The translations under genes were made by a program, and so were the position numbers. Positions 3,060 through 29,441 of a stretch of 32,684 nucleotides of DNA are shown piece by piece. This DNA comes from a virus (lineage: Duplodnaviria > Caudoviricetes): IMG/VR virus record IMGVR_UViG_3300013120_000186, positions 1-32,684 of that record; one strand, 5' to 3'. Within the stretch, counting starts at the first letter, position 1, and each line of letters begins with the position of its first letter. Under the pieces are notes generated by a model. The model was given only the letters and a program-made list of their open reading frames with translations, had not been told where the DNA came from and made no database searches.

Positions 3060-3177
3060 TACCCCAGAATGCTCATAAACCCATTTTTTATGGCGATAGT
3101 GCGGTTCAACCCCATAAGTGAAACAAAATCTATTCACCCACTCACAAAGATTGGCATATGATGTGTTTCTCCAATTT
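3060..3177. repeat. Dispersed 118-bp direct repeat, copy A
   Basis: Ungapped hand alignment to 24389-24506 gives about 93/118 identity, with exact blocks TACCCCAGAATGCTCATAAA and CAACCCCATAAGTGAAACAA. Confidence 0.92.
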
Positions 3178-12123: not shown

Positions 12124-12673
12124 CGGTTTGCCTCCTCTTCTCTGCTTCAGATACTTCTATAATTGCGAGTACCCTCCCCAGTTCTGAATCAGTCCACCGC
12201 TCTATTTCCAGCGGTGATATTCCATACCTCTGAGCAATGGTGTCTATGTATAATGCTATCCGCTTCTGTCCCTCAAATAATTGGCGTTGAGTATCTGGAT
12301 TGTATGCGGTTCTATTAGTGCCATAAAAACGGCTGTCAGACAATTCAATTATTTGCTGAAACGCATAAGCAATATCATCATCTGGAATATCTAAAATTGA
12401 AAGTGTTTCCGCTCCGGATAATTCGCTGCCCTCCGGTACTATTTTGGGAGATACAGAACAGGCACATAATACTTCCCCTGCCTGTTTCATTATCAGGTCT
12501 GCCTCTTCATCGGTGAGCAGCTCCTCAGAGCCGTGTTTGATAAGAGGTGCAAGCCCAGCATTCAGCATATCTATGCCCCTGTATGCTCGCACCTCTATGT
12601 TCACATTGAGGACAGGCAATGTGACTATTCTTCTGGACAACTCCCTGATTTTATTCGCTGTAGAAGTTCCCAC
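12110..12673 (-). CDS. Tail assembly chaperone
   Basis: Between tail tube and tape measure genes; C-terminal IAQRYGISPLEIERWTDSEL resembles gpT-like segments. Confidence 0.7.
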   Translation of the reverse strand: MGTSTANKIRELSRRIVTLPVLNVNIEVRAYRGIDMLNAGLAPLIKHGSEELLTDEEADLIMKQAGEVLCACSVSPKIVPEGSELSGAETLSILDIPDDDIAYAFQQIIELSDSRFYGTNRTAYNPDTQRQLFEGQKRIALYIDTIAQRYGISPLEIERWTDSELGRVLAIIEVSEAEKRRQTDGSK

Positions 12674-12691
12674 ATTTATACTCCTCTTTCC

Positions 12692-13678
12692 TTATGCGAT
12701 AGTGTGGGTGTTCTTCATTACTACTGCGAGTACATCTGTAGTGCCGTTTGTTGCTTTCATTGAAACGCTCCGTGTCTCTCTGCCCCACGCTCCGATAGGT
12801 CTGGAGGCACTGTCTATGAAACTGTCTCCAAACTGAATTGAAAGTTCCCTCTCACTCGCACCGGCACCGCCGTTATTCCAGACAAATTTATTGTCGCCAG
12901 TCCATTCCGCAGTAGTATCTCCGGTGAGTGTATAGGCAGCAGCATCCATCCGGATGTCAAATTTCCAAGAGACATCTCGCACACCGCTTCTGCCTATAAA
13001 GTTCAGTGTTGCCGGAGCGGTGGCTGCGTGGTCAAAATCACCCTCTGATAAAGATGCTCCAATATCAAAACCGATGGAACCCAACCGGTATGTTGTTGTG
13101 CCGTTCAGAGTGGGTGTAAAGTGATTCCATTTAACCGGTTCCGTGTCTGTAACTGATGAAAGAGTATTGTTTGTAGTTCTGGTCATCGCAGTGGCTAATC
13201 CGGACACGGTCATTTCAGCATTCCCCTCCGGTGATTCAGAGATACTTATTGCTGTCACGCAGGCATTCGCAAATACCTCTTTGATAATCTCTCCGCTGTT
13301 CGCTTTCTGGTCAGAATATTCTACTGCCAGTGAGCCAAACTTAACTTTATCTGCGAGTGCAAATGTATGTGTAATCGGTGCCGCTCCGGCAGAAGTTATC
13401 GCACCACCCATAATGAGTTCATATAACTTCTCTCTGTATGAGTAAGACATCACTGTTGTAAGTGTCCAAGTATAGTATAATCCACCTACCACATAATCAG
13501 TGGGGTCAACATCCAACTCCTCTATAATTGATTTGTTGTTCCGTGGCTCATAGGTAAACCCACCGGCTTTGATTTTTAGATATTCATAAGAACCGGCAGT
13601 CTGTCCAAAAGTGGTGCCGTCCACCTCTGCGTTTATAGCAACACCCACCCTCGCATTTTGTCCAATAAAATACGCCAT
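12692..13678 (-). CDS. Major tail tube protein
   Basis: Size, position and Thr/Gly/Ala beta-rich composition; THTFALAD motif; no sheath gene nearby. Confidence 0.8.
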   Translation of the reverse strand: MAYFIGQNARVGVAINAEVDGTTFGQTAGSYEYLKIKAGGFTYEPRNNKSIIEELDVDPTDYVVGGLYYTWTLTTVMSYSYREKLYELIMGGAITSAGAAPITHTFALADKVKFGSLAVEYSDQKANSGEIIKEVFANACVTAISISESPEGNAEMTVSGLATAMTRTTNNTLSSVTDTEPVKWNHFTPTLNGTTTYRLGSIGFDIGASLSEGDFDHAATAPATLNFIGRSGVRDVSWKFDIRMDAAAYTLTGDTTAEWTGDNKFVWNNGGAGASERELSIQFGDSFIDSASRPIGAWGRETRSVSMKATNGTTDVLAVVMKNTHTIA

Positions 13679-13861
13679 TTATTTGCCTCCTGTTTTCTTA
13701 GTTTTCTCCGGTTTAATCTGCTCCCAAAATCCCTCTGCTATCCGTGCATTCGCTTCACGCTCCGGTACTTTGATTTCATCATCCGGTTTTATTCGCACCG
13801 GCTTTCCGTCCACCACTACTTTCAGCGGTATGGTGCCTGTATATTTTAGTTTCTGACTCAT
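13679..13861 (-). CDS. Small hypothetical virion-associated protein, 60 aa
   Basis: Fills the gap exactly; GGAGG RBS. Confidence 0.7.
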   Translation of the reverse strand: MSQKLKYTGTIPLKVVVDGKPVRIKPDDEIKVPEREANARIAEGFWEQIKPEKTKKTGGK

Positions 13862-13862
13862 C

Positions 13863-14297
13863 TTATCCCTCCATTATTCTACACACCAATTTCATTGATG
13901 CGGTTATTCCCATTTGGGTGTCTATCACTTTGCTCACCGTGCTCATATATGCCCACTCTATATCTTCCTCATCAAAGATAGGATAACCGGAATTGGGGAC
14001 ATTACACGCCGCCTCTATTTCTGACACCGCAGTGTCTATCAGTTCATCTTGCTGCTCGTCACTTTCTCCTCTGGCTATCACGCCAATGATATATTCTCCG
14101 GTTCTGGCTGGAGTGTCCGGCACCAGCCCTCTTGCCTCGTCATATACCAATCCGGAAAATGTCACCACCGCTGCTACTTTGTAAGCGGTCTGCGATAGTG
14201 CTTCAGATATATTCTGAGTGATGAGATAATCACCGGATAATTCTGACTGTAAGTGCGACACTATTGACGCTCCAATACCTCTATAATCTACACTCAA
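13863..14297 (-). CDS. Tail terminator-like protein
   Basis: Position and size in the neck module. Confidence 0.55.
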   Translation of the reverse strand: MSVDYRGIGASIVSHLQSELSGDYLITQNISEALSQTAYKVAAVVTFSGLVYDEARGLVPDTPARTGEYIIGVIARGESDEQQDELIDTAVSEIEAACNVPNSGYPIFDEEDIEWAYMSTVSKVIDTQMGITASMKLVCRIMEG

Positions 14298-14764
14298 TTC
14301 ATATACCTCCGGCAGAGTTCATTGAACAAACTTCTGGCGTGCTCCTCTGCGTAGTTTTTCGCTGGCAAGAACGGTCTGGCTGGCATACCGGTTTTTGTTC
14401 CCTCCTCTGTGAATATTGAATATTCTTTTGGGGAGCCGACACGCACCAAACCTCTGCCCCTGTTCATCTCCTGCGAGATAGAACGCCGCATTGCTCCAGT
14501 CAGAATATTAGCCAATCCGCTCTTTCCGTGTTCTAGTTTCCACTCCGCATATTTGGCATTCAGTGGTGCCCACGCAGCCCCACCTCCCTGCTTCTGGTCA
14601 TCAAACGCTTTCAGTCCCTCACGAAGCATCCACGCAGCCATACGCACCAGCCATTTCCGCTCCACCACATCATAATCACCCTTGACCCATCGTGCCCAGT
14701 TCCGCAGAACCTCTTTAGAGGTGTTTGTAAACCGGAGTGATGTGCCTCCATAATCGGTGGTCAT
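14294..14764 (-). CDS. Virion morphogenesis/tail completion protein (Mu gpG / P2 gpS-like)
   Basis: WAPL...LTGAMRRSI...VGSPKEYS...GT...MPARPFL. Confidence 0.85.
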   Translation of the reverse strand: MTTDYGGTSLRFTNTSKEVLRNWARWVKGDYDVVERKWLVRMAAWMLREGLKAFDDQKQGGGAAWAPLNAKYAEWKLEHGKSGLANILTGAMRRSISQEMNRGRGLVRVGSPKEYSIFTEEGTKTGMPARPFLPAKNYAEEHARSLFNELCRRYMN

Positions 14765-15561
14765 CTGTCAAAATCCCTCGTGGTATCGTGAGCCCAATTT
14801 ATGGGGTCACTCATATCGGCAATGGGATAAGAACCGGATGGACTGCTCACCGGTGCTCCGGATATTTTACTGAGTGCGGTTCCGGTGCTATCTGTTAGAG
14901 TTCCGGAGCGGATAGAATTGTATCCACTCTCCAGTAAATCATCGTAATCACTTCTGGCATTCCCTGTACTGGAGCCGCTGAGTGCGGACACTGACTGCCC
15001 TGCCATAAGTATAGATGCCGCTTTCCAACAATTCATTAGTATTAAAATCTCAAATGTTCTGCTGCCTCCGGTAAATGCTGTAAGAGTGATATTAGCACTG
15101 TCAGTTGTCAATCCTGTATTATTCCCCTCGTCACCGGCTTTCCTCGCATATAAGGTGATTATGGCACTGTCTCGCAGAGAATACACAGTGGTGTTAATTC
15201 CGGTACTGGTGTGATATTCTCCTGTGGACAGATTATTGATAGCACTGTGAATATTTAATGCCGTGTCCTCTTTTGTTGAACCTATTTTGACCTCATCTTC
15301 TGCCGTTGGAGTTCCAGAGACAAAAGTGTAAACCTGCGAACCTATTGTAAGTGTTTCACCAGCAACCGGATTAGCAGTCAGTTCCACCCCTCCGGTTGCT
15401 GTATTAGATATAGGTGCTGAATAGGTGTCCGCTAACTTCATTTCAATCTCTTGACTGGCTGCGGATAATGTACTCAAAATCACCTTATCGGTATAAGATG
15501 AATTGCTGAATACAGGCAACCGGTTTTGTAAATCAGTGATGCTCGCAAAACTCATATTCAC
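14761..15561 (-). CDS. Head-tail adaptor (Mu gp36-like) with an inserted beta domain
   Basis: N-terminal FASITDLQNRL...ASQEIEMKLADTYSAPI adaptor pattern; follows the capsid gene. Confidence 0.65.
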   Translation of the reverse strand: MNMSFASITDLQNRLPVFSNSSYTDKVILSTLSAASQEIEMKLADTYSAPISNTATGGVELTANPVAGETLTIGSQVYTFVSGTPTAEDEVKIGSTKEDTALNIHSAINNLSTGEYHTSTGINTTVYSLRDSAIITLYARKAGDEGNNTGLTTDSANITLTAFTGGSRTFEILILMNCWKAASILMAGQSVSALSGSSTGNARSDYDDLLESGYNSIRSGTLTDSTGTALSKISGAPVSSPSGSYPIADMSDPINWAHDTTRDFDR

Positions 15562-15578
15562 TCAACCCCTCTAATGTT

Positions 15579-16493
15579 TTATGTAAGCACGCTGTATCTC
15601 TGATATCCAGCAGTCTCATCAGTTGCTACACGGTCACGACAATCACGCAGAATAAACTTAGTGCCTGCTGGGTCAATTAAAACCTCTTTGGCTGTCTTGG
15701 TCAACTTAGTATTCCGCACGGTGTACTGGAATGATGGAGCATTCTGCGAGTTCGCAGGTGAGCGGTAAAACATCCAGCAATATCCGGTTCCCCAGATTTG
15801 AGCCATACTGCTATCTTTCCGCTTGGCTGCACTATCGTACTGAGCCAGCCCCACGTGAATTTCAGGCACACCCATCCAGTTAGCAATCTCCGTACCGTCA
15901 GCAAGTTTAGAGCTGCCACCGGCCATCCGCTGGTCAGCAACAAACTCTTGAAGAAACAGGAATACATCCGGAGATACTACGCAGACATTTGGCAATCTTC
16001 CCACGCTGGTAAGGATGGTGGATTTCATCGTGGTAATATCAGCCGCTGGGTCGCCACTGGCGGCATCCCATTTTGTTCCGGGAGTTCCCTTGTTAGTGAA
16101 GTTAGTACCGGTGGTCATCCAGTCAGCCACTTCCAGTTCCTGTTCTATCTGCATACTTTCCTGCAAATCTTCCATACCGTGAGTAACAAGAGATATAGGC
16201 AAATCACTCTGCAATTCTATCTCCTCCGGTATGAATACAGAACCCTTATGAACCTCGCAGGAGAATGATATTGTGCTGACATCACTATCCACTGCGGTTG
16301 CTGGTGAATATGCTCCGGTTTTGAAGTTCAAATGTTTCTTATGTTTTGTGCCAAACTTTGGAATATATCCGTTGCTGGAAGTAGTGTTAATCACCGGTGC
16401 TATCTTATCCCAAATATAGAGTTCATTGCGATATGATAGAGCCGTCTTTGTTACGATATTAGTCAGTTGGACATCTGTCAAATTTATAGCCAT
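15579..16493 (-). CDS. Major capsid protein (HK97 fold)
   Basis: LSYRNELYIWDKIAPVI, KWDAASGDPAADI, GRLPNVCVVSPDVF motifs; position after the decoration and scaffold genes. Confidence 0.88.
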   Translation of the reverse strand: MAINLTDVQLTNIVTKTALSYRNELYIWDKIAPVINTTSSNGYIPKFGTKHKKHLNFKTGAYSPATAVDSDVSTISFSCEVHKGSVFIPEEIELQSDLPISLVTHGMEDLQESMQIEQELEVADWMTTGTNFTNKGTPGTKWDAASGDPAADITTMKSTILTSVGRLPNVCVVSPDVFLFLQEFVADQRMAGGSSKLADGTEIANWMGVPEIHVGLAQYDSAAKRKDSSMAQIWGTGYCWMFYRSPANSQNAPSFQYTVRNTKLTKTAKEVLIDPAGTKFILRDCRDRVATDETAGYQRYSVLT

Positions 16494-18005: not shown

Positions 18006-18205
18006 TATTTACTCTTCTCATAAAAGATACCGTGGTCACCTTTGTAATGCTGATTGTGCTTTATTCTATTGTTCAATATTTCCTGTGGGATGCCCTCTGG
18101 GTAAGCATCGCATCTTAACAATGGTACCCTCTTGCTGTTTTGTCTGAAGTGCTTACAAGTAGAACATTGACTGACTTTCCCAATTATATCTTCTCTTTGC
18201 CTCAT
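18005..18205 (-). CDS. Small Cys/His protein, 66 aa; candidate immunity or partner of the ADP-ribosyltransferase
   Basis: ATG at 18205 overlaps the portal-ART stop (ATGA); CSTCKH...CDAYPEGIP...H. Confidence 0.7.
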   Translation of the reverse strand: MRQREDIIGKVSQCSTCKHFRQNSKRVPLLRCDAYPEGIPQEILNNRIKHNQHYKGDHGIFYEKSK

Positions 18206-21117
18206 TGCTGCACCAACCTCACTACTAACTTCAAACACGGTCTGATGTCTGTAGTCCCCATCTCTCCAATACCCCAATTTATAGTACCCATCGCAGCATC
18301 CTCCACTATCAACTGAGAACCTCTATTTAACAGCACCTCAAATTCATTGTATATATCATCCACATCATCTATTGAATACAATTTTTCCAAATGTAATCCA
18401 CGGTTAGAAGTAGATGTGCTGCGTATTTCCATAGTCACCATCCGGTCTGCGTGTGGCAAATTATATTCGCTGATAGGCATTCTGCTGAACATTTGTTCAG
18501 CAGCAAAATCTTCTCCCACACCAGCACTGGTGCTGGTGCTGACAAAAGCATCATCAACAATAATTTTCCCTTTCATATCATTCAGTATCTGGGCAATATC
18601 ATCATCGCTCACCTTTGTCCAATCTATATTCAATCCATCAATATGCTTTGTGGTACCTCCACGATACAACACAGTGTCTTTACTCAGATTGCCTGCATCA
18701 GACAGCATTGCTTCGTCCATTAAAGACACAATTTTTCTTGCCTCCTCCTCAGACAAAAATTGCATCTTGTCAGCATCCCCTCGCAAATATTTATTGATGT
18801 CATAGCCGGTATTGTTCATATAAGTTTCCAACGCTTCCAACTGTTCCGGAGGCAGCCCCATTGTCAACATCTCCGGAGGCACGCTGCGGACAGGTGCGAG
18901 TTTGCCACTGAAGTTATCCGGCAGCCTGCCGGCCAGTTCTTTGCTCTCTTGTAATGAAGTCCACTGACCGTCACCCCACGGTTCCTCGTCACTGAACACC
19001 GGTATCAGAATGCTCCGGCAGTTGAAGTGCAGAGGAGGTTCCGGCAGTTCTGGGTCATTCACGTGAAAGAACCTACCATCATACATCTGGCAAATCTCGG
19101 TGGTGCTGTCGTCCATCACCGCTGAAAACTGATACCCTTTTATGCCTCCGGTTTTCATCGCAAATGGGTCAGACAATTCATTGAATAAAGACATCCTGCC
19201 GGAGTTATATGCGGTGGCGAGATTAGTGTTTACTATCGTGGCTGCCCTCCCTGCCGGTAATGCCTCTGCTGAAAGATACTGCTGAACCTGCGACATTGCC
19301 TCACGCTCTGAAATACCTCCGGTTAAAGCACGCTCAATGCTGTAATAGATGTCATTGGCTATGTTTCCATAAGTCTCTTCCAACGCCAGATATACCCTCT
19401 GGCTCATCATCTGCTGTGCCGCTGCCGGAGTTACCAACACCGGAGTGGTGGACACCTCTGCCTTTACCGGCAGTAATTTCTGGGCATTCTCTCTGCCCTG
19501 TTCCCACCGGTTCATTAGTGAGTCCGTTAATACTTTCCGGAGTTTAGAACCTCCAGTGGTGACATTATCTTTTATGGCTTTCCGGACAGTTCCAAAATCT
19601 CGTGATTTCCACTTTCCGCTTCTGTCAAATAATCCGCTGTTTATTGCTTTCATTAGTTTAGGCAAATTCTCTTTCCAAACATCCAGCAAATTATCCTTAG
19701 CACTCTTCTCCTCTTCCAGTGCCTGTTTCTTCAATTTCCGGATGTCAGCACGCTGTCTCCCTTTGGGTGCGGCGGCTGCTATTATAGTTTGCCCATAAAC
19801 ACCGGTTTTATGCCGCTCCTGCCATCTTTGTATTGTACCCTCTATATTGGTATTCAATTCAATCTGAGCGGTGTTATATTCGCTTATATCAAAGTCCACA
19901 CCGGTGGGATATAAGAGTTTTTGAATGAGTTGCTTCTGTGTTCCCTCCGACACTTCTGTTGTAAGCAATCCGGTCTGCTTTGCTTGGGATAGAGAAGTGA
20001 GAACCGCTCCCACATCCGCATCCCTCTTGGACAACGGTTCTGGGATTAGTCTCGGCACCGGATATTCTGCAAACCCATTCCAGTCAAGCAATCTCCGGAA
20101 TAACTGCTCAGCAATGCTCTCGCAGTATGCCCAGCCGTCTGCCGCCATTGCCTCATATACTATCTTCTGGCTGACTACCTTAGAAGCATAAGAACCGGTG
20201 TGCTGACCCTCTGCGTTTATACTCTCATCGTACAGAATTGCTTTGCGTATCTCTTTGTTTGAAAGTTCTCTAATGCCGTTAATGAAATGCGTGCCGGCGG
20301 TTCCTGCCGGTATCTCCAAATCTATATCATAACTCGCAGGCAATACCACACTCGCATATTCAGACATCTCTCTCAACATAGTGAGAGTGGCGACTTTGTC
20401 CCTCTGATAATGTTCATCTGGTATCTTAGCTGAGCGGATGCCACTGGCGTTCACACTGCTGAAAACTCCATATAATCTGAATAGTATCTCTTTCAGTTTC
20501 CAAGCGTCATATGCAGAATATAGAATGCTCTCACCATATGGGTTCCACGGCTGGGAGCGGAACGGATAGTACACCACCTCATCCGGTTCAACTGTATTCA
20601 CTACTCCGGTAATGTTCTGGGTGAAGGATAATATGTTGCCCCTCGTGTCCATCTGGATACCATCCGCAAAATCGTCTGACTTACAAACTCGCAGTGCTTC
20701 CAACCCCACGACATATCCAAACCGGTCTGTGTCTATTATCCGCTGTATAGGTTCCGCAATTACCATTCCGGAGATAAGTGCCTCACGCAACATCTGACTC
20801 CGGAGAACACTCAGAAATGAGCCCCTCATCCGCTCTATAATCTCAGTGACTAAATCAGCCGCCAATTTGCCCTCCGGTGTATCATCAGCCGGTGTGATTT
20901 GATAACCTGCTACCATCGCAGTCAATCGGATATTCAAGCACGCTGATACTTCACTGTCTCGCAGCATCCCTCTGTATTCGCTTATCCCCTTAGTGCCGGA
21001 GATAGTATCAGAGGTGGAGACATCTGAAGATGGCTGACCAAAGGTGTCCACAACACCCAGTTCCGCTCTAATCTGTTTTTTGATTATTTCACGCACAAAT
21101 TGTATAGGTGTTCGCAT
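18202..21117 (-). CDS. Portal (Mu gp29/DUF935-like) - MuF head morphogenesis - ADP-ribosyltransferase fusion, about 971 aa
   Basis: Portal: MLRDSEVSACLNIR, NPYGESIL, GSYASKV. MuF: RAATIVNTNLATAYNSGR, SAVMDDSTTEIC, PPLHFNCRS. ART: YDINKYLRG, LYRG, FVSTSTS, EFEVLLNRG. GGAGGAGG RBS before MRTPIQ. Confidence 0.9.
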   Translation of the reverse strand: MRTPIQFVREIIKKQIRAELGVVDTFGQPSSDVSTSDTISGTKGISEYRGMLRDSEVSACLNIRLTAMVAGYQITPADDTPEGKLAADLVTEIIERMRGSFLSVLRSQMLREALISGMVIAEPIQRIIDTDRFGYVVGLEALRVCKSDDFADGIQMDTRGNILSFTQNITGVVNTVEPDEVVYYPFRSQPWNPYGESILYSAYDAWKLKEILFRLYGVFSSVNASGIRSAKIPDEHYQRDKVATLTMLREMSEYASVVLPASYDIDLEIPAGTAGTHFINGIRELSNKEIRKAILYDESINAEGQHTGSYASKVVSQKIVYEAMAADGWAYCESIAEQLFRRLLDWNGFAEYPVPRLIPEPLSKRDADVGAVLTSLSQAKQTGLLTTEVSEGTQKQLIQKLLYPTGVDFDISEYNTAQIELNTNIEGTIQRWQERHKTGVYGQTIIAAAAPKGRQRADIRKLKKQALEEEKSAKDNLLDVWKENLPKLMKAINSGLFDRSGKWKSRDFGTVRKAIKDNVTTGGSKLRKVLTDSLMNRWEQGRENAQKLLPVKAEVSTTPVLVTPAAAQQMMSQRVYLALEETYGNIANDIYYSIERALTGGISEREAMSQVQQYLSAEALPAGRAATIVNTNLATAYNSGRMSLFNELSDPFAMKTGGIKGYQFSAVMDDSTTEICQMYDGRFFHVNDPELPEPPLHFNCRSILIPVFSDEEPWGDGQWTSLQESKELAGRLPDNFSGKLAPVRSVPPEMLTMGLPPEQLEALETYMNNTGYDINKYLRGDADKMQFLSEEEARKIVSLMDEAMLSDAGNLSKDTVLYRGGTTKHIDGLNIDWTKVSDDDIAQILNDMKGKIIVDDAFVSTSTSAGVGEDFAAEQMFSRMPISEYNLPHADRMVTMEIRSTSTSNRGLHLEKLYSIDDVDDIYNEFEVLLNRGSQLIVEDAAMGTINWGIGEMGTTDIRPCLKLVVRLVQQ

Positions 21118-21157
21118 AGAACCTCCTCCACATACTATACACAATTATTCCCTGTCG

Positions 21158-22600
21158 TCAAGCATAGACAATATCATTGGGTGATATACGCTCCGTAGGT
21201 TCATATACAGCCATTGCTACTGCATCCGCTCTATCCGGTGACCTGCCCAGTGTTTTCTTGATTTTATCCTTAGCAACTATTTTGATTTTACCGGCTGAAT
21301 TCAGCTCCCATTGTATTGACAGCAACTCCTCTCTTAGCATTGGGTCATCCGGCAGCGTCAGAGTTCCCTCTTGGAGCCGGTCACGGAGGTTCCAATATGA
21401 CTCCGCTCTCTTGTTTAGGTATGTACTGTCCACAGCCCTCTCTGAAGCCATATACCTCTTAGCATATATGCCCTGTTCCGTCAACCGTGCATACACTCCG
21501 GCACCCACCCCAATACTATCCACAGAGACAGGAACGCTCCCAGCATTAGAAGCATTTATAACACGCCCCACTACCTCCATAAGATTAGTGCCTGTATATG
21601 TTTCAATTTTCTCTATTCCAGAACCGGTATAGAACGCCAGCACTGTTTCATCATCCCCATACTCCGCAACATCCACCCCAATATGCTTCACCACCGGCTC
21701 TTCTCCTCCGGTACTCTTCACCGCTCTTTCCAACCACGATAACTCTATCAATCTGCCCTCAGATACTCCAGCAAACTCTCCAAGGATATGCTGACGATAT
21801 ACAGCACTGTCCTCACCCCACTGCTGTTTCCTCTTCTCCAAATACCTCTCATCCATTGAACCCTCTCTGATAGCATCCTCCACTGTTATCCGCTGTACAG
21901 CCCAATCGGTGTACCCTCTCTTTCCGGAACAAATGTCATAGAACCTCCCCACCGGCATAGATGGAGTGCTGACTGCGATAAACTGCGTGGTGCCAGCGGT
22001 TCCAATACCCTCTAACGCATCCCAGATGGCTGGTGGTACTCCCTTTGCCTCATCTATCAGCACCAGTATCTCGTCAGCGTGAGCACCCTCTAATTTATTG
22101 GGGTCAGAACACGATGCTGAGAACGCTTTGCCATAATCCAACGCCAGAGATTTTAATTGAAGTTGCTTGCTATCGTATTCAGTCCCGATGATATCCCACT
22201 GGAGTTCCCTGCTCCATTTATGAACCTCTTGCCAGAGGTACTGCGTCAACTGTAGCCACGATGATGCCACGGTCAGTATTTTCCACTGCTGTCTCCTCTT
22301 CTCTCTGGTAAGAGCATACCAGTGTATCAGCCACGCCAGTGGTGCCGTCTTGCCCACCCCTCTGGGTGCGTATATTGCGACACGCTTGTTGTTGGCTACT
22401 GCCTCCAACATCCTCTCTTGATAATCACGCATTTCAACACTGGGCAGGAACCTCCGGACAAATTCCGCTGGATTAGCATACACCTCGTCAGACAGGAGTG
22501 CCCCACCATTATTCTTCACTAATCTCAAGCAGTCTGCTAACTTCTGTTTCTGATGTTCCGATAATTGAAGCAACAGCGGTGATGATTTCACGGTCAACAC
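21158..22600 (-). CDS. terL: Terminase large subunit
   Basis: RDYQ Q-motif, APRGVGKT Walker A, LIDEA Walker B, VSTP coupling motif, IGVDVA and RSPDRADA nuclease motifs. Confidence 0.96.
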   Translation of the reverse strand: MLTVKSSPLLLQLSEHQKQKLADCLRLVKNNGGALLSDEVYANPAEFVRRFLPSVEMRDYQERMLEAVANNKRVAIYAPRGVGKTAPLAWLIHWYALTREKRRQQWKILTVASSWLQLTQYLWQEVHKWSRELQWDIIGTEYDSKQLQLKSLALDYGKAFSASCSDPNKLEGAHADEILVLIDEAKGVPPAIWDALEGIGTAGTTQFIAVSTPSMPVGRFYDICSGKRGYTDWAVQRITVEDAIREGSMDERYLEKRKQQWGEDSAVYRQHILGEFAGVSEGRLIELSWLERAVKSTGGEEPVVKHIGVDVAEYGDDETVLAFYTGSGIEKIETYTGTNLMEVVGRVINASNAGSVPVSVDSIGVGAGVYARLTEQGIYAKRYMASERAVDSTYLNKRAESYWNLRDRLQEGTLTLPDDPMLREELLSIQWELNSAGKIKIVAKDKIKKTLGRSPDRADAVAMAVYEPTERISPNDIVYA

Positions 22601-23036
22601 CTCCCTCCTCTATTCTCACTGTCCTGTCCGGCATCCCTGTGGCCTGTGCCTCTATCTCCAAGCCCAACCGGAGTAAGTTCATTGCTAACTGTGGTGTAAC
22701 TTCTCCAGCATCAAATGCCTCTTTCAATCGTGCTGCAGTATGCTTTTGTAGCCACTGCCCTATGCGGAGCCGCTTCACCCAGATGTCTGCCTCTTTCTGT
22801 ACTGCTTTCTCTCTTGCCACCGTTGACACACGGTTCCGATACTCATACCTCTGTGCCACCCAATTCTTTAGCATGGAGTGTTTTCTCATAGTGGAGACAG
22901 CCGGTATTTTTTCCGGTGGTAATGACTGCGGCAATAACACCTCTCGCATATATTCAAAAGTGACCTCATCATCCCCTGTGATATACGCTTCTGCTATAAA
23001 TGCCCAGTCAAATTGTTTCTTATTATTCCTGCCCAT
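22509..23036 (-). CDS. terS: Terminase small subunit (likely start MGRNNKK at 23036)
   Basis: Immediately upstream of terL; DWAFIAEAYITG HTH-like start, NWVAQR, helical body; GAGGAG RBS. Confidence 0.75.
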   Translation of the reverse strand: MGRNNKKQFDWAFIAEAYITGDDEVTFEYMREVLLPQSLPPEKIPAVSTMRKHSMLKNWVAQRYEYRNRVSTVAREKAVQKEADIWVKRLRIGQWLQKHTAARLKEAFDAGEVTPQLAMNLLRLGLEIEAQATGMPDRTVRIEEGGVDREIITAVASIIGTSETEVSRLLEISEE

Positions 23037-24387
23037 TCTCTTCTCCTCTGCCCTCACGATACATATAGACAATATTACCATCGTCATCTATTCCGTGAAC
23101 AGATACCGGTTCACCAAAGTATCGCACCGGTGAATATCCGCTCTTGGGATTGTTCCACTGGAATTGTAGCCACTGGTCAACGCTCCTGCCACGGTGAATT
23201 GCCCTGCTCTTAGAGGTGGAGCGTGCTACATTCATCCCATTCGCATCTGGGGCATTTACCTCTCGGAATATATCAGCCGCATCACCGGATATATCAGACC
23301 AATACATCAGCGGTTCCTCACCCCTCCGGTGCCGTTGTTTTGCTATCATCAACGCTTCTGTGAATTGTCCCTTTGATACTTTCCAATCCGGAGGTACTCC
23401 ACAACAGCAGGTAAAATCTGATTTTCCCTTATGATGAGCGTCACTGCAATAGAACCTCATCCCCAGCCGGTGTGCGAGTTCCTTTATGCCGGCAATAGTA
23501 TCTGCCTTTAATGCGTAGTTTAACCGCATATAACCGTGTTGCTTGGGTGAGTGTGTGCGATAGTATTCATACATATCATACCCCATCACCCTGCTCATAG
23601 TTGTGTATCTTTCCTTGAGTTCTGGCTGTGCCCTCCCCTCTAAACAAAAATATTCCACCGTGACACTATCCGCTCCTGCTCTCTTGGCCGCAATTATGAG
23701 GTCTCTCCAGTCGTCAGACAGCCCCACAATATAAGGTCTCAACCGCAGTGTCACGTGGGCACCGGTATCTGCCAGCCGCTTGATTGCTTTCAACCGCTCC
23801 TGCGGTGAGTCAACTCTATCCTCAATGGCTCTGGCTTTGATTGGGTCAGCGGTGATGATAGATATTTTCCAGTGCCAGTTATGTGCGTGTGCCCTCACCA
23901 GTTCCATATACCTCTCGTCACGTGTCCACCATACTCCCTTTGTGGAGATTGACAGCGGATAATCGTGCTGGTCAAATATCTCTAATAACCGGAGTGAGAC
24001 ACCGTGGGTTCTTTCAAATTCGTCTAGTGGGTCAGCCATTCCACCCCACTGCAATGTTCTCCGGTTCCGGAGATAATTCAAAAACTCTTTATCTGCTTTC
24101 CGCACCCTGCCAATGTATTTTCCCTCAGACAGATACAAAAGCCGGTTCACACTTTCTGGGTTTACAGATGACACTTTATGCTCTTGATAATCGGTTCCCA
24201 TTGTTGGTGCTTTCTGAAAAAATGCGAAGCAATAAAGACAATTATATGAGCACACGGAATAAGTATCAAATGTCATCGGCATAGAGCAATCGCACACCTC
24301 ACCGCTCCATCTTGGTGAGCAGTAATTCTGGTCAATATTTTCACTGATTTTTGTTGTTTTCATTCTCTGCTTTCCGCTCTTTCCCAT
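23023..24387 (-). CDS. Radical SAM enzyme 2 (spore photoproduct lyase-like), DNA modification cassette
   Basis: DTYSVCSYNCLYC (CxxxCxxC), GGMADP, ISTKG, LRLRPYIVG, C-terminal CCCG. Confidence 0.9.
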   Translation of the reverse strand: MGKSGKQRMKTTKISENIDQNYCSPRWSGEVCDCSMPMTFDTYSVCSYNCLYCFAFFQKAPTMGTDYQEHKVSSVNPESVNRLLYLSEGKYIGRVRKADKEFLNYLRNRRTLQWGGMADPLDEFERTHGVSLRLLEIFDQHDYPLSISTKGVWWTRDERYMELVRAHAHNWHWKISIITADPIKARAIEDRVDSPQERLKAIKRLADTGAHVTLRLRPYIVGLSDDWRDLIIAAKRAGADSVTVEYFCLEGRAQPELKERYTTMSRVMGYDMYEYYRTHSPKQHGYMRLNYALKADTIAGIKELAHRLGMRFYCSDAHHKGKSDFTCCCGVPPDWKVSKGQFTEALMIAKQRHRRGEEPLMYWSDISGDAADIFREVNAPDANGMNVARSTSKSRAIHRGRSVDQWLQFQWNNPKSGYSPVRYFGEPVSVHGIDDDGNIVYMYREGRGEENGQE

Positions 24388-24562
24388 TTACCCCAGAATG
24401 CTCATAAAGCCATTTTTTATGCCCGTAGTCAATAGCAACCCCATAAGTGAAACAATTTATATTCAACCACTCATTAGATTTGCTATATGCTGTACTTCTC
24501 CAGTTTTTTTTATTTATTTTTTGAAAATCCCATAAATAAAAGGTACTTCTTGAAGTTTTCAT
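24341..24562 (-). CDS. Doubtful 73-aa ORF spanning repeat copy B
   Basis: ATGA overlap with the upstream gene supports it; AT-rich hairpin content and a non-coding paralogous copy argue against it. Confidence 0.3.
   Translation of the reverse strand: MKTSRSTFYLWDFQKINKKNWRSTAYSKSNEWLNINCFTYGVAIDYGHKKWLYEHSGVNGKERKAENENNKNQ
24389..24506. repeat. Dispersed 118-bp direct repeat, copy B
   Basis: Matches 3060-3177 in the same orientation. Confidence 0.92.
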
Positions 24563-25356
24563 TCACACTCCGGTTCATCTGGAATTGCCTGTTTTAATGC
24601 CTCATAATTCACACCGGAATAAGTGTCAATTGCCTCGTGAATATCGTGAATATCCTTGCCCACATAGTAGTGACCCTTCCAGTATGATTTGAATTTACAA
24701 AGCACAGTTTCACTCTCTTGAATATTGATATTCCTGCAGTCATCCGGAGGTGCTTTGAACAGGCAGAGTTCTCTGATGATTTCATCTGAAACTGCCTTCA
24801 CCTCCTCTGGAGTTATCGGTGCTTTCCAATCCCTGTATTTAAGAAGTGCCGCCCCTTGTTTTGGGTCACGATACATAGCCAATGAAGCAGAAGAGAAGTC
24901 AACCGGATAACCTAAACACCTCTCACCCATATCACAGATTTTCCACGCAATCCAAGTACCACACATTGGTAAACTCCGGACACGCTTGGAACACTCTTCA
25001 TACTTCTGTGTCTTAAAAATCCACCGCACTATCTCCTCCGGAGTTCCGATATGGCTAAGTGCATTCACGGTTCTTACTGCTTTGGAACCTCTGAAATGCC
25101 TCCGCTCCGCTCCTCTCTTTCCTCCGGTCTGCTTTGCTATCTCTAACATTGCTCCATAATATTCATTGGGGTCATCGTAGTCGGCAATGGCCGCTGCTAT
25201 GCCCACGTGATAATAATACCAATACGCAAGGCACCACCGTGCTTTATATTCCCACGACAGTCCGGAACCGTGGAGCATATTGTACACTGGGTCAAGGTCT
25301 CCGGTTATGATGAGACGCTTTCCAAACTCCACAGGTTTGTATTTCATTTTACGCAT
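24559..25356 (-). CDS. Amino acid:DNA transferase (aGPT-Pplase2/AADT family, HhH glycosylase-like fold)
   Basis: GDLDPVY, RWCLAYW, RGAERRHFRG, GTWIAWKICDMGER, NIQESETVLCKFKS motifs, plus neighbourhood. Confidence 0.85.
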   Translation of the reverse strand: MRKMKYKPVEFGKRLIITGDLDPVYNMLHGSGLSWEYKARWCLAYWYYYHVGIAAAIADYDDPNEYYGAMLEIAKQTGGKRGAERRHFRGSKAVRTVNALSHIGTPEEIVRWIFKTQKYEECSKRVRSLPMCGTWIAWKICDMGERCLGYPVDFSSASLAMYRDPKQGAALLKYRDWKAPITPEEVKAVSDEIIRELCLFKAPPDDCRNINIQESETVLCKFKSYWKGHYYVGKDIHDIHEAIDTYSGVNYEALKQAIPDEPECE

Positions 25357-26648
25357 TTTGTCAAATCTGCTGGTGTTAACGCATTGGCTTCACCCATTCT
25401 TTTGTTTCCGCAGAGTGCTCTGCCGTTGTTATCAACGCAATAGAGACAGCCGGCTGGGTCACATTCTAACACCGGTTGCCATCTATCTTTAGTGCTTTTG
25501 CGAGTATATACCGGAACCCTCCTGCCGTGGCACTGGTCACTCGTGGTATAGTTTGGTGCTAAACTTACTCCAGTCTTATCCGTGATGTTTCCGCTCTTAT
25601 CTCTCTCATACCTATATTCATAACACAGAGACATAGTGACATCAGCCCTCCGGCACGCCGCACTGTATCTGTTCAATGCCTGTATCCTGTACGCCTCTTT
25701 AATTGTCCGGATGTGTCCGATAGTTTCTGTAAACAGCCCCTCAAAAATCTTCCCACGCTCTGGAAACAATGCTTTCATTTTCTTCACCAGTGGCTTCACG
25801 GTTGATGATACTATTTCCACGTGTTTGAATATGAGGTGATTTGCTCCCCTCTCTGCTAACATCTGTATTAACTCCTCTATATCTTCTACAGTAACTATTC
25901 CGGCAATTATCGGGTTCACCTGCACGCTCACATATATACCGGCTCTGGAATAATCTTCCACCGCTTTCAATATATCTTCCAGCGGTGATGCGAATGGTGA
26001 TATTTTACTCCATACATCACTCCTCTGCGTGTTAATACTGAATTGCATATATGAATATGGGTTCTTGGTCAAATACTCCATAGCCCACGCCGGCGGTACT
26101 CTTCTTGACAAATAGAAGATAGGCAAACCGGCTCTGATGAATACCTGCGATAATCTCTGTGTATTATGATACACCGCTTCCAGTTCTTGAAATGGCTCCG
26201 TGAATGATGAAATATACGCTCCGGAGGCAGTTCTCATCTGCGATAATTGTTTGCGTACCTTATCCGGATATTGGGGGTCAACCACTCCAACCCCTTGACT
26301 GCGATACCCTCGCACACCATTGTTGACATAACAGAAAGCACAGCGAGTAGAACAGGTGCCGCCATATGGCTGAGTGAGCAGTGCCTCTGTATAGCACGGT
26401 CTGGGTCTCACGCCCTCCGGTTCTGTCTTTCCCTTATACCATCCTCGCAATGGAATATTCTGGTCAAGTATCACGTGGGGTGTTGGCTTCATATATACCT
26501 TCATCCGCCGCCGGTTTTCCGGTGATGCACTCTGGAGCATACCTATATCCCACCACTGATATTCCCTGCCATTCTCGTCAATACCGCCTTTATGTTTGGG
26601 CACTAATTCGTTGCCCATCGGTTCTATTTTCTTCATATCACTCTCCAA
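25344..26648 (-). CDS. Radical SAM enzyme 1, DNA modification cassette
   Basis: QPYGGTCSTRCAFC (CxxxCxxC), SSFTEPF, VQVNPIIAG; extra C-terminal Cys (CHG...CDPAGCLYC...CG). Confidence 0.9.
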   Translation of the reverse strand: MESDMKKIEPMGNELVPKHKGGIDENGREYQWWDIGMLQSASPENRRRMKVYMKPTPHVILDQNIPLRGWYKGKTEPEGVRPRPCYTEALLTQPYGGTCSTRCAFCYVNNGVRGYRSQGVGVVDPQYPDKVRKQLSQMRTASGAYISSFTEPFQELEAVYHNTQRLSQVFIRAGLPIFYLSRRVPPAWAMEYLTKNPYSYMQFSINTQRSDVWSKISPFASPLEDILKAVEDYSRAGIYVSVQVNPIIAGIVTVEDIEELIQMLAERGANHLIFKHVEIVSSTVKPLVKKMKALFPERGKIFEGLFTETIGHIRTIKEAYRIQALNRYSAACRRADVTMSLCYEYRYERDKSGNITDKTGVSLAPNYTTSDQCHGRRVPVYTRKSTKDRWQPVLECDPAGCLYCVDNNGRALCGNKRMGEANALTPADLTKCVK

Positions 26649-27453
26649 TATTCCAAAACATTATTTTTGCCCTCTCTGCTATTTTATTTTCACACAGCCA
26701 CTTCCACGCTTTCAAATCGTAGTATTCATTGCACGGAAATGGACATTCAAAATCCACCGCATCCTTGTAATTGTACTTCTCATCTATGAAAGATATTCTC
26801 AACCGCTCCGGAGGTTTCAACCCACACTGCCGGAGTATATACTGCCGTGCTGATTCTCGGCTCCGTGAATACCCCATATGAAAGATAATTCTGCCGGTGG
26901 CTTTCCGCATTGTCAAGCCACGCAGTACGCCAGCACCTATAGTGCCAGAAGATATAGACACCACCCAGATATAATCGGTGAAATACTTTAGTGGCATACG
27001 CAGCACCTCTGTACAGGTTCCTGCCACTGTCTCGGATAACTTCAATGCGTTGGGCAGCATATAACTATACCGGAACCGCTCTGCTAATATTTTTTTGGCA
27101 CGGTGATAGAGTATAGCAGAGCGGCCAGCCGGCAGCGGTATCAGAACCGCTCCCAGTTTCTCTGCTCTTTCCTGCTGTTCCTGTAGTTCCGGTGAACCCT
27201 TATACACAGGATAGAACACCACTGCTTTCCGGTTCATTTTTTGGCATACATAAGAAACACCCCAGCCGGCTTTTGAGTGAAAGGTATCCAGCACCCCAAT
27301 GTACTCCTCTTTCCTCTTCTCCAGATGAGCGGCAATACCTCGCACCTTACTGAATGATGGAGCCGGTTTTGGACAGCACATATCCTCACGCTTGACTGTT
27401 ATTCCGCTGTGTACCTCTATGGGTGTATCAGTGATGATGAAATCTGATTTCAA
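26638..27453 (-). CDS. PLP-dependent enzyme (fold type II), probable DNA-amino acid decarboxylase/lyase
   Basis: TPIE...VKREDM...SKVRG (PLP lysine), SISSGTIGAG phosphate loop, YYDLKAW, FWNIG. Confidence 0.85.
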   Translation of the reverse strand: MKSDFIITDTPIEVHSGITVKREDMCCPKPAPSFSKVRGIAAHLEKRKEEYIGVLDTFHSKAGWGVSYVCQKMNRKAVVFYPVYKGSPELQEQQERAEKLGAVLIPLPAGRSAILYHRAKKILAERFRYSYMLPNALKLSETVAGTCTEVLRMPLKYFTDYIWVVSISSGTIGAGVLRGLTMRKATGRIIFHMGYSRSRESARQYILRQCGLKPPERLRISFIDEKYNYKDAVDFECPFPCNEYYDLKAWKWLCENKIAERAKIMFWNIGE

Positions 27454-27454
27454 T

Positions 27455-27937
27455 TTACCTCCGGTCTATGATTTTACTTCGTGAAAACCGGCTCGCATAT
27501 TGCGTGTACAGTCGTGTTGATTTTGTGGCAGTTCGCTTAATGTGCGGAACCGTCATTTGGGAGCCGGCGGCACGGAGCCGCTTCACACATTCTCGCAGTG
27601 GACAATATACAAGATATAGACAAATATCAAAACCGCTCCGGAATAGCCACTGAAACATCTTGTCATTAGTTATCCGGTCACCCTCCATAATGATATTATC
27701 CCACTGATTATAATTCTCGCTTAGCCACTGGCGTATATCCGGTGCGATAGCATAGTGGAGTGTATCCGTGCCCTGACACCTCCGGTCTATGATATAGTCA
27801 CCCAATAACACTGTTTTAGTGCCTGCTACCGTGTGTTTGAAAGGTTCCGTGTATAATACGACAGGGACAGACATCCAACGCTCACGCACCCACGATGTTT
27901 TGCCTGCCCCTGCCGTGCCGATAATTATGTGTATCAT
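27455..27937 (-). CDS. P-loop nucleotide/DNA kinase (type associated with hydroxymethyl-pyrimidine DNA kinases)
   Basis: GTAGAGKT Walker A, LGDY...GTDTL, IMEGDRI, RLRAAGSQ...RTATK. Confidence 0.8.
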   Translation of the reverse strand: MIHIIIGTAGAGKTSWVRERWMSVPVVLYTEPFKHTVAGTKTVLLGDYIIDRRCQGTDTLHYAIAPDIRQWLSENYNQWDNIIMEGDRITNDKMFQWLFRSGFDICLYLVYCPLRECVKRLRAAGSQMTVPHIKRTATKSTRLYTQYASRFSRSKIIDRR

Positions 27938-28569
27938 TCTGGGATATTCAACTCATCCTCATCAATCACTGTTTCACGGTTCCTGCCCTTGAATTCAAAT
28001 TTAATTCCGTGGTGTTTCAAAAACAGTTCCGCTTTTGCTTTATCCTTGAAACTCACATACACCACATACCGCTTGGCCGGTGTATCTCCGGTGATATCCC
28101 CTCCGGAACCGGAGTCACTTAAATCATCTGAATATTCTACATCCTCATAATCCCAGTCATCCAGAGATATATCAGTATCAATTCCGGTGATGGCTTCTAT
28201 TTCAATATCATCAAAACCGGTTATGAAATCATCGTCAGATATATCACCCAGAAGTGCTGACAGTTTATTCATATCCCAGTCACCAGATATTTTATTCAGT
28301 GCGAGGTTCAGTGACTTCTCCTCTGCTTCTGTGAGTTCTATCTCCACCATATCCGCTCCGGTCTCACCCAGTTCCAAAAGTGCCGACACTCGCTGATTTC
28401 CACCCACAATATTCATTGTTTTGGTATTCACGATAATCGGTTGCACCAGTCCGTAGGTGCTGATACTTTCCTTGAGTTTGTCCAACTCCTCTCGTGAAAT
28501 GTCTCGTGGGTTGTATTCTGCAATATGCACCTCATCAAACTCATACCGCTTCACTTGGATTTTCTTCAT
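27934..28569 (-). CDS. ParB/sulfiredoxin-like N-terminal domain protein (likely start MKKIQV at 28569)
   Basis: YNPRDI...LKESISTYGLVQPIIVN...IVGGNQR...LNLALNKISGDWD; acidic tail; no methyltransferase domain. Confidence 0.9.
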   Translation of the reverse strand: MKKIQVKRYEFDEVHIAEYNPRDISREELDKLKESISTYGLVQPIIVNTKTMNIVGGNQRVSALLELGETGADMVEIELTEAEEKSLNLALNKISGDWDMNKLSALLGDISDDDFITGFDDIEIEAITGIDTDISLDDWDYEDVEYSDDLSDSGSGGDITGDTPAKRYVVYVSFKDKAKAELFLKHHGIKFEFKGRNRETVIDEDELNIPE

Positions 28570-29441
28570 TTGCTCTCCTCTTTCTGGTATATAGTCAGTC
28601 CACCGCATTTACTCGTGGCAGTGAGTTTATTCCTGCTGATATACCGGTTCATTTTTTGTTCCCAGTCCTCACCTCTGAATATATGATAATTCACTTTGCC
28701 TTTGCTATCTCGTACATACACCGCTCCGGTCTGTTCCGCTCCGGAGGTTTTGGAGCCGGTCTGTATGTCTGTCTCATCTTCCCAGCCACCTCTATTCAGC
28801 CACGTGCTGGGGTGAGGTACAAATGCCCCTCCGTCCTTAGTCCACTGGTCAGTCTGTTTCCACCTCTCCACCGCTTCCATTATTATTGGTGCAATGGTAT
28901 CCAGTTTCATCCGGTTCCACACCTGTGCTGCTTTCCGTTTGCCTATCTTGCGTGGATACACCTCCCAGAATTTGGCAAATACAGCACCATAGGACACTCC
29001 TATGGCAGTTTTACTCTTCTGGGGTGTTTTAGTATGGCTGGGCTGTGTTTTGGCAGTCTCCACTGTTTCTGGGGTGTTCTTGGTGTGCCGTGCTTTCCCA
29101 GCATTAACTCTCTTGTTATGCTTTCCGGTCTGCTCCTCTCCAATCTCTACCAGCCGTGGAATAACAATAGAACCGGAACCGTGAAACAATGTACCCTCCT
29201 CCATCACCCTGCCACGCTCTAAGAGTTCTGCGAGAAGATTATTAAACACCTCCAAATCCAACCGGAGGTATGCCGCAATATCCTCGTGAGGCATATCTAT
29301 TCTGCCGGCTGTTTTCCGCACCCACGATAAACACATAAGGTCTATGAGCAAACCTCTGGCAGCAACAGAGCATAACCGGAGTTGAAGAGAAGTCATCCAG
29401 TCAATAGCATAGATGGGATACCACTGCCGGATATCACTCAC
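28566..29441 (-). CDS. Phage replication initiator (YdaU/DUF1376-like N-terminus, helical C-terminal domain)
   Basis: WYPIYAIDWM...ARGLLIDLMCLSW; FWEVYPRKIGKRKA...VPHPSTWLNRGGWEDE. Confidence 0.8.
   Translation of the reverse strand: MSDIRQWYPIYAIDWMTSLQLRLCSVAARGLLIDLMCLSWVRKTAGRIDMPHEDIAAYLRLDLEVFNNLLAELLERGRVMEEGTLFHGSGSIVIPRLVEIGEEQTGKHNKRVNAGKARHTKNTPETVETAKTQPSHTKTPQKSKTAIGVSYGAVFAKFWEVYPRKIGKRKAAQVWNRMKLDTIAPIIMEAVERWKQTDQWTKDGGAFVPHPSTWLNRGGWEDETDIQTGSKTSGAEQTGAVYVRDSKGKVNYHIFRGEDWEQKMNRYISRNKLTATSKCGGLTIYQKEESK

Follow-up and report, generated by a model that had tools for sequence, protein, structure and literature searches.

A radical SAM enzyme as candidate oxygen-independent thymine hydroxylase in a phage DNA hypermodification cassette

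The window analysed here is a stretch of 32,684 nt that makes up the whole of the viral record IMGVR_UViG_3300013120_000186 (Duplodnaviria; Caudoviricetes), and all of the genes recognised in it are encoded on the minus strand. It carries a DNA hypermodification cassette like that of Pseudomonas phage M6, together with a second radical S-adenosylmethionine (SAM) enzyme, here called RS2. We propose that RS2 is an oxygen-independent hydroxylase of the thymine C5 methyl group that would feed M6-type enzymes leading to 5-aminoethyluracil (5-NedU), probably with help from a ParB-like protein; judged from sequence and gene context, we put the probability of this reading at roughly 0.7.

The cassette in the window and its missing precursor

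Along the minus strand, the replication initiator is followed by ParB, a P-loop kinase, a pyridoxal phosphate (PLP)-dependent enzyme, radical SAM 1, an amino acid:DNA transferase, an open reading frame (ORF) of 73 aa, RS2, the probable terminase small subunit (terS), and the large subunit (terL), with neighbouring cassette genes overlapping or at most 1 nt apart (Table 1). A preliminary description of this DNA had reported a tightly coupled run from ParB to the second radical SAM enzyme, followed by the terminase genes. This order is confirmed and all the named genes are present, but the 73-aa ORF between the transferase and RS2 had been omitted. One member of the terS-like family found after RS2 in other loci matches an NCBIfam terS model, below its cut-off. 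In ENA, members of both radical SAM enzymes' clusters occur on a contig of 6,837 nt, which appears to be a single contig and hence a second assembly of their linkage. The same description had called the genome apparently complete; a 119-nt terminal repeat and the IMG/VR class of direct terminal repeat agree with this, but the CheckV completeness estimate is 43%.

Table 1. Genes of the modification cassette and adjoining terminase genes, with positions in the window.
Feature	Position	Strand	Basis
ParB-like protein	27934..28608, likely start 28569	-	PF02195 1.9e-7
P-loop kinase, M6 gp54 (5-hmdU DNA kinase) family	27455..27937	-	phrog_800 9e-10
PLP-dependent decarboxylase, M6 gp52 counterpart	26638..27453	-	phrog_7093 1e-75
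Radical SAM 1, M6 gp53 (glycinyl-thymine isomerase) counterpart	25344..26648	-	phrog_9252 3e-115
Amino acid:DNA transferase, M6 gp51 (glycine transferase) counterpart	24559..25356	-	PF18724 1.2e-18
73-aa ORF, overlaps 118-nt direct repeat	24341..24562	-	no Pfam, PHROG or NCBIfam match
Radical SAM 2 (RS2), SPL-like fold	23023..24387	-	PF04055 1.8e-7
Probable terminase small subunit	22509..23087	-	position and weak match (7e-6) to family after RS2 elsewhere
Terminase large subunit	21158..22600	-	PF03237 8e-8

The enzymes of the M6-type 5-NedU pathway are all represented, as counterparts of gp51, gp52, and gp53 and a gp54-family kinase. The transferase is 34% identical to gp51 and keeps the GDLDP, ERRH (84-87), CGTW (132-135; FGPW in gp51), and ETVLC (216-220) motifs; its correspondence to the active-site residues reported for the PaMx11 gp46 transferase (PMC11472151) was established by motif via gp51 rather than by direct alignment. 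The PLP enzyme shares 48% identity with gp52 over 284 columns (E 5e-92), with its Lys36 aligned to gp52 Lys36, the role of which is described in PMC8989533, while radical SAM 1 is 43% identical to gp53 over 409 residues and has its CxxxCxxC motif at 99/103/106. The kinase shares 19% identity with gp54, scores only 17.8 bits against PF18751 (cut-off 27), and gave no match when gp54 was used as a tblastn query. With its Walker A, G-x-D, and EG motifs aligned to those of gp54, we read it as a divergent member of that family. In M6, the pathway passes through 5-PmdU, N-glycinyl-T, and C-glycinyl-T to 5-NedU, given as 271 u (PMC8989533), and from its gene content the likely end product of the cassette in the window is the same base.

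These enzymes act on 5-hydroxymethyluracil (5hmU), for which PMC8989533 names two sources, a dUMP hydroxymethylase and TET_JBP. Neither the dUMP hydroxymethylase and phage DNA polymerase of the M6-type pathway nor the Tet_JBP dioxygenase of the ParB-dependent 5mYOX clusters was found in the window. A six-frame search of the contig at E ≤ 1 gave no match to PF12851 (Tet_JBP), PF00303, PF00145, or PF02511, and thus none to thymidylate synthase (TS), Thy1, C5-methyltransferase, or TET/JBP; local hidden Markov models for TET, TS, polymerase, dCMP deaminase, and HD hydrolase found nothing on the contig at 1e-4, and M6 gp58, gp62, and gp65 had no tblastn match on it at E ≤ 1. The preliminary description had listed a TS homologue, dCMP deaminase, DNA polymerase, TET/JBP, and methyltransferase as absent, and this held in the profile searches, which uncovered no hidden hydroxymethylase or TET on the contig. 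We also considered 5-methylcytosine as the substrate and rejected it, as no C5-methyltransferase is present and the enzymes further along the pathway are of a kind associated with 5hmU.

RS2, its homologues and their gene neighbourhoods

RS2 shares only 21% identity with radical SAM 1 over 208 columns. It has the features of the radical SAM superfamily, namely a CxxxCxxC motif (C46/C50/C53, present in 97-98 of 98 aligned sequences) and a partial TIM barrel. In the same alignment, which comprised sequences 34-54% identical to the query from frames of 380-650 aa, one per group, four further cysteines are conserved: C34 in 97/98 sequences and C248, C328, and C329 in all 98. Pfam and NCBIfam searches showed no B12 domain. 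Homologues are numerous: the 90% collection yielded 795 at E ≤ 1e-10, and the 50% collection 274 clusters at E ≤ 1e-30. ESM Atlas returned only viral radical SAM clusters without a function. No NCBIfam family scored above its cut-off, the nearest being PA0069 (63 bits, cut-off 360) and Rv2578c (51 bits, cut-off 430).

A structure model of RS2 (pLDDT 90.5) gave spore photoproduct lyase (SPL) as its top fold match (Foldseek 3e-8; VIA-align Z 19.3, root mean square deviation 3.2, 265 aligned residues, next Z 15.6). Identity to SPL is only 12-16% and RS2 has about 110 extra C-terminal residues; a profile built from 42 RS2 sequences matched no PDB sequence at E ≤ 0.1, so that by sequence RS2 does not fall within the SPL family. 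For the hydrogen-donor cysteine and the base-flipping hairpin residues of SPL, both fold comparisons yielded aligned ranges rather than paired residues. Among 28 homologues longer than 500 aa, nine are fusions of RS2 with a glycosyltransferase (TAGT) at either end, one of them arranged kinase-RS2-TAGT. Inteins or LAGLIDADG insertions interrupt several homologues (P0372, P0380, P0382, P0439, P0458, P0460, P0474, and P0495).

We surveyed gene context by running local profiles against six-frame translations of all loci, which were grouped at 90% identity of the key protein. The RS2 set comprised the best 80 of 251 viral matches and 61 GTDB loci (140 loci in 93 groups after one fragment was dropped), and the TET set consisted of 51 groups formed by the 80 best of 577 matches. 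RS2 loci were recovered by an alignment-based scan, a single-sequence scan having found none. A third, RS2-independent set was anchored on gp53 alone and chosen without regard to RS2; its 109 groups came from 123 viral and 185 metagenome matches, of which the best 80 each were used.

RS2 and TET loci have the same ParB-oxidase-modifier-terminase layout, with the oxidase swapped. The 93 RS2 groups contained ParB in 82, terL in 77, kinase in 50, TAGT in 36, amino acid:DNA transferase (ADDT) in 34, GNAT in 27, gp53 in one, TET in one, and TS in none; the corresponding figures for the 51 TET groups were ParB 47, terL 35, kinase 29, ADDT 26, TAGT 14, GNAT 2, and RS2 0. In its loci, RS2 usually lies directly before terS. 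Kinase and TAGT both use the hydroxyl of a hydroxymethyl group, and at least one of them occurs in 80/93 RS2 groups and 43/51 TET groups. Fusion to TAGT is known for TET as well (L159). GNAT acyltransferases stand out in the RS2 loci (for example L073, L074, and L105) by their frequency relative to TET groups.

In the gp53-anchored set the three sources did not overlap. TS was present in 55 of the 109 groups, RS2 in eight, and TET in six, with no group holding two sources and 40 holding none (median locus 5.3 kb). The 12 groups that had ParB each carried RS2 or TET as well, and ParB was never seen together with TS. Loci combining ParB, gp53, ADDT, kinase, and RS2 in varying order were L065 (9896-15579), L223, L224, L227, L230, L315, L316, and L320; a PLP gene is present in all except L230, and L227, L230, L315, and L316 have a polymerase-like gene nearby and no TS. 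Four other gp53 cassettes (L229, L289, L301, and L302), with 18-21 kb in view, had no TS, TET, or RS2, possibly reflecting a further route or a distant gene. A gp53 tree was built from the 69 groups in which a source had been found, with the window and M6 added and the 40 source-less groups left out. In this tree all nine RS2-linked proteins fell in one clade together with two TET rows and one TS row, and five changes suffice for the tree; a TET pair grouped with RS2 loci in a starred subclade.

Whole viral records gave a similar result. Of 47 RS2-bearing records picked from longer contigs, 46 were examined (positive controls 3/3 each), with TET in one and TS in none; the 15 records at ≥90% completeness likewise included one with TET and none with TS. 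RS2 thus does not regularly co-occur with either known source, and the earlier suggestion that it replaces TET/JBP as the source of an activated C5 methyl is supported by gene context. Since kinase and TAGT need a hydroxymethyl hydroxyl, and RS2 is common to those of their loci that lack TET and TS, we infer that RS2 would make 5hmU in DNA.

The hosts of these loci are consistent with an oxygen-independent reaction. Among the 61 GTDB RS2 prophage loci, 54 lie in genomes named as groups that we take to be obligate anaerobes. In 50,697 cultured-phage records, phage TET had 36 matches, 35 of them named after aerobic genera, and RS2 had none.

Alignment with 35 ParBs from RS2 loci showed that the window ParB has the NTPase fold, an acidic linker, and a short C-terminal domain, with no visible helix-turn-helix (HTH). 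In a tree of 176 sequences, from which those below 140 or above 330 aa were left out, it belongs to a starred clade made up of 66 RS2-linked ParBs. Across this tree RS2- and TET-linked ParBs interleave, with nine label changes, at least four of them forced by starred branches. Many RS2 loci carry twin ParBs (for example L010, L031, and L046); the first copies group in one clade and the second copies in its sister clade. The clade C1 phage T-dioxygenases (5mYOX) are activated by ParB (PMC13229309), and by analogy the window ParB is likely an activator of RS2.

Other features of the contig

A direct repeat of 118 nt has copies at 3060-3177 and 24389-24506 that are 79% identical, the latter directly upstream of RS2. 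Its conservation is at the DNA rather than the codon level. The repeat shows no unusual fold (z 0.15 to -1.49), no Rfam match, and no excess of promoter-like sites. A diversity-generating retroelement was considered and rejected, because the differences between copies are not adenine-specific and no reverse transcriptase was found. A contig of run X1 passes from sequence flanking the first copy into the second copy within an identical core of 20 nt. Such a junction would remove, as a loop, the genes for lysis, structural proteins, and terminase along with RS2, and may stem either from true recombination or from a chimeric library molecule.

Elsewhere on the contig, one protein combines a portal, a MuF domain, and a C-terminal ADP-ribosyltransferase domain (18202-21144; PF06074, PF04233, PF03496), and another a GHKL-type ATPase and a weak SprT-like metalloprotease domain (1024-2334; phrog_6077). 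Three tandem copies of a 22-nt unit lie in the intergenic region at 2897-2962, before a VRR-NUC gene, and the ORF at 7608-9299 falls in tail-like or lectin-like ESM Atlas clusters. No integrase or repressor was recognised among the window genes by Pfam and PHROG annotation.

Proposed reaction, alternatives and relation to known systems

In the proposed reaction, RS2 would turn thymine of finished phage DNA into 5hmU. A 5'-deoxyadenosyl radical would take a hydrogen from the C5 methyl of a flipped-out thymine to give a thymine allyl radical. Loss of one electron from this radical, perhaps with a second metal site at C34/C248/C328/C329 as the acceptor, would leave an exocyclic methylene, to which water would add. 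Kinase, glycine transferase, radical isomerase, and PLP decarboxylase would then convert 5hmU to 5-NedU, and ParB would activate RS2 as it does the clade C1 dioxygenases. SPL offers a precedent for the first step, as it flips thymine out of the helix and forms a thymine allyl radical, with a methyl C-H strength of 86 kcal/mol (PMC3467042). For the origin of the oxygen, the precedent is BchE, a radical SAM enzyme that stands in anaerobically for AcsF, which uses O2, and draws its oxygen from water (PMC13598231).

Several observations weigh against this proposal. The CheckV estimate is low despite the terminal repeat. Neither kinase nor TAGT was found in 13/93 RS2 groups (8/51 for TET), and five of those 13 have 15-21 kb in view. 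One complete genome (L064/G035, 9354-15583) carries ParB-RS2 together with a convergent ParB-TET-PLP-ADDT-kinase operon, which could mean that the two form an aerobic/anaerobic pair, or that RS2 has a different function. Nine gp53 groups with at least 12 kb in view have no source at all, which points to other 5hmU sources or to ones at a greater distance. For RS2 versus TS among gp53 groups, the Fisher p of 0.003 overstates independence, because the gp53 proteins linked to RS2 all belong to a single clade. C34 may have a role other than metal binding, because the SPL of some species, such as clostridia, has a fourth, hydrogen-donating cysteine that is also upstream of the motif (PMC3467042), and the BchE precedent is cobalamin-dependent, whereas RS2 shows no B12 domain. 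The link to anaerobes is confounded by sampling (gut metagenome-assembled genomes versus cultured aerobes) and by possible binning errors, and the dataset that best matches the window phage is a marine metagenome.

The alternative that survives best keeps RS2 as the entry enzyme and changes only the oxygen donor, either to a carboxylate, phosphate, or prephenate-like group that is later hydrolysed or to O2 that traps the radical at low oxygen tension. The frequent GNAT genes of RS2 groups (27/93, against 2/51 for TET), in two of which GNAT is the sole modifier detected, would fit such a version, and the radical SAM enzyme DarE needs O2 (PMC13598231). However, the window has no GNAT, kinase and TAGT both require a free hydroxyl, and most named hosts are anaerobes; we regard this version as unlikely.

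Less probable still is that RS2 performs a further tailoring step towards a new base, as the preliminary description had offered as its alternative; 5hmU would then be supplied by the host, by a gene that escaped detection, or by a portion of the genome absent from the contig. The low completeness estimate, the genome with both RS2 and TET, the nine long gp53 loci without a recognised source, and the rearranged junction between the two 118-nt repeats would all fit this reading. A step on the glycine adduct is nevertheless disfavoured because gp53 occurs in only 1/93 RS2 groups and a glycosyltransferase in 36, RS2 thus accompanying chemically unrelated end modules (sugar versus amino acid). Moreover, neither TET nor TS was found in 14/15 near-complete RS2 genomes, and the non-structural ORFs of the window that have no assignment fall far short of TET or TS in length. 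A role for RS2 as an SPL-like repair enzyme or eraser, cleaving C5-methylene adducts to restore thymine, or as a packaging-linked factor, is very improbable: SPL is the nearest fold, C34 could be a hydrogen donor like the upstream cysteine of clostridial SPL, and RS2 usually lies directly before terS, but such a role would leave kinase, transferase, and TAGT without a substrate and both the exclusion with TET and TS and the TAGT fusions unexplained, with identity to SPL as low as it is.

The locus shares features with two known systems. The four post-replicative enzymes of the M6 5-NedU pathway (gp51-gp54, PMC8989533) each have a counterpart in the window, with their catalytic motifs conserved. 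Unlike in M6, dUMP hydroxymethylase, polymerase, dCMP deaminase, and HD hydrolase are absent, while ParB and RS2 are present and the terminase genes adjoin the cassette. With the ParB-dependent phage T-dioxygenases of 5mYOX clade C1 (O'Toole et al. 2026, PMC13229309), it and related loci share HTH-less ParB proteins, kinase/ADDT/glycosyltransferase modules, linkage to terminase, and interleaved ParBs, but RS2 loci have a radical SAM enzyme in place of the Fe/2-oxoglutarate dioxygenase and their named hosts are mostly anaerobes. The locus would work like M6 downstream and like the ParB T-dioxygenase clusters upstream, and its entry enzyme sets it outside both.

At the level of the enzyme, RS2 resembles SPL (PMC3467042) in fold, and SPL is itself a radical SAM enzyme that acts on flipped thymine via an allyl radical. 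RS2 differs in occurring in a phage DNA-modification rather than a repair context, and in its longer C-terminus and four extra conserved cysteines. The relation of BchE to AcsF (PMC13598231) is an analogy only, drawn without a homology comparison, for a radical SAM counterpart of an O2-dependent oxidase; unlike RS2, BchE is cobalamin-dependent and acts on a tetrapyrrole.

No proposal of a radical SAM substitute for TET/JBP was found in the literature searched, Iyer et al. 2013, the figures and supplements of PMC8989533, and bioRxiv supplements aside. Radical SAM is not mentioned in the text and 12 supplementary files of PMC13229309, nor 'radical' in the available part of PMC12704722. The contribution of the window lies in its full M6 set with a known expected product and in the gp53-anchored three-way exclusion; the proposed reaction of the enzyme is probably new.

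The wider claim, which we hold somewhat better than even, is that RS2 founds a widespread radical SAM 'anaerobic TET/JBP' family that would hydroxylate the methyl group of thymine in double-stranded DNA under ParB control, using water as the oxygen source; this would be a third route to 5hmU in phages of anaerobes, feeding both amino-acid and sugar hypermodifications. The window is an unusually clean test case, as characterised M6 counterparts exist for all of the downstream enzymes and the product to expect is known, leaving RS2 and ParB as the main unknowns. If the proposal is true, oxygen-free thymine hydroxylation would be an undescribed DNA chemistry and a new radical SAM reaction on DNA, with possible use as an anaerobic tool for marking thymine. 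It would also explain the presence of hypermodification genes without a visible precursor in small temperate phages of gut and sediment anaerobes.

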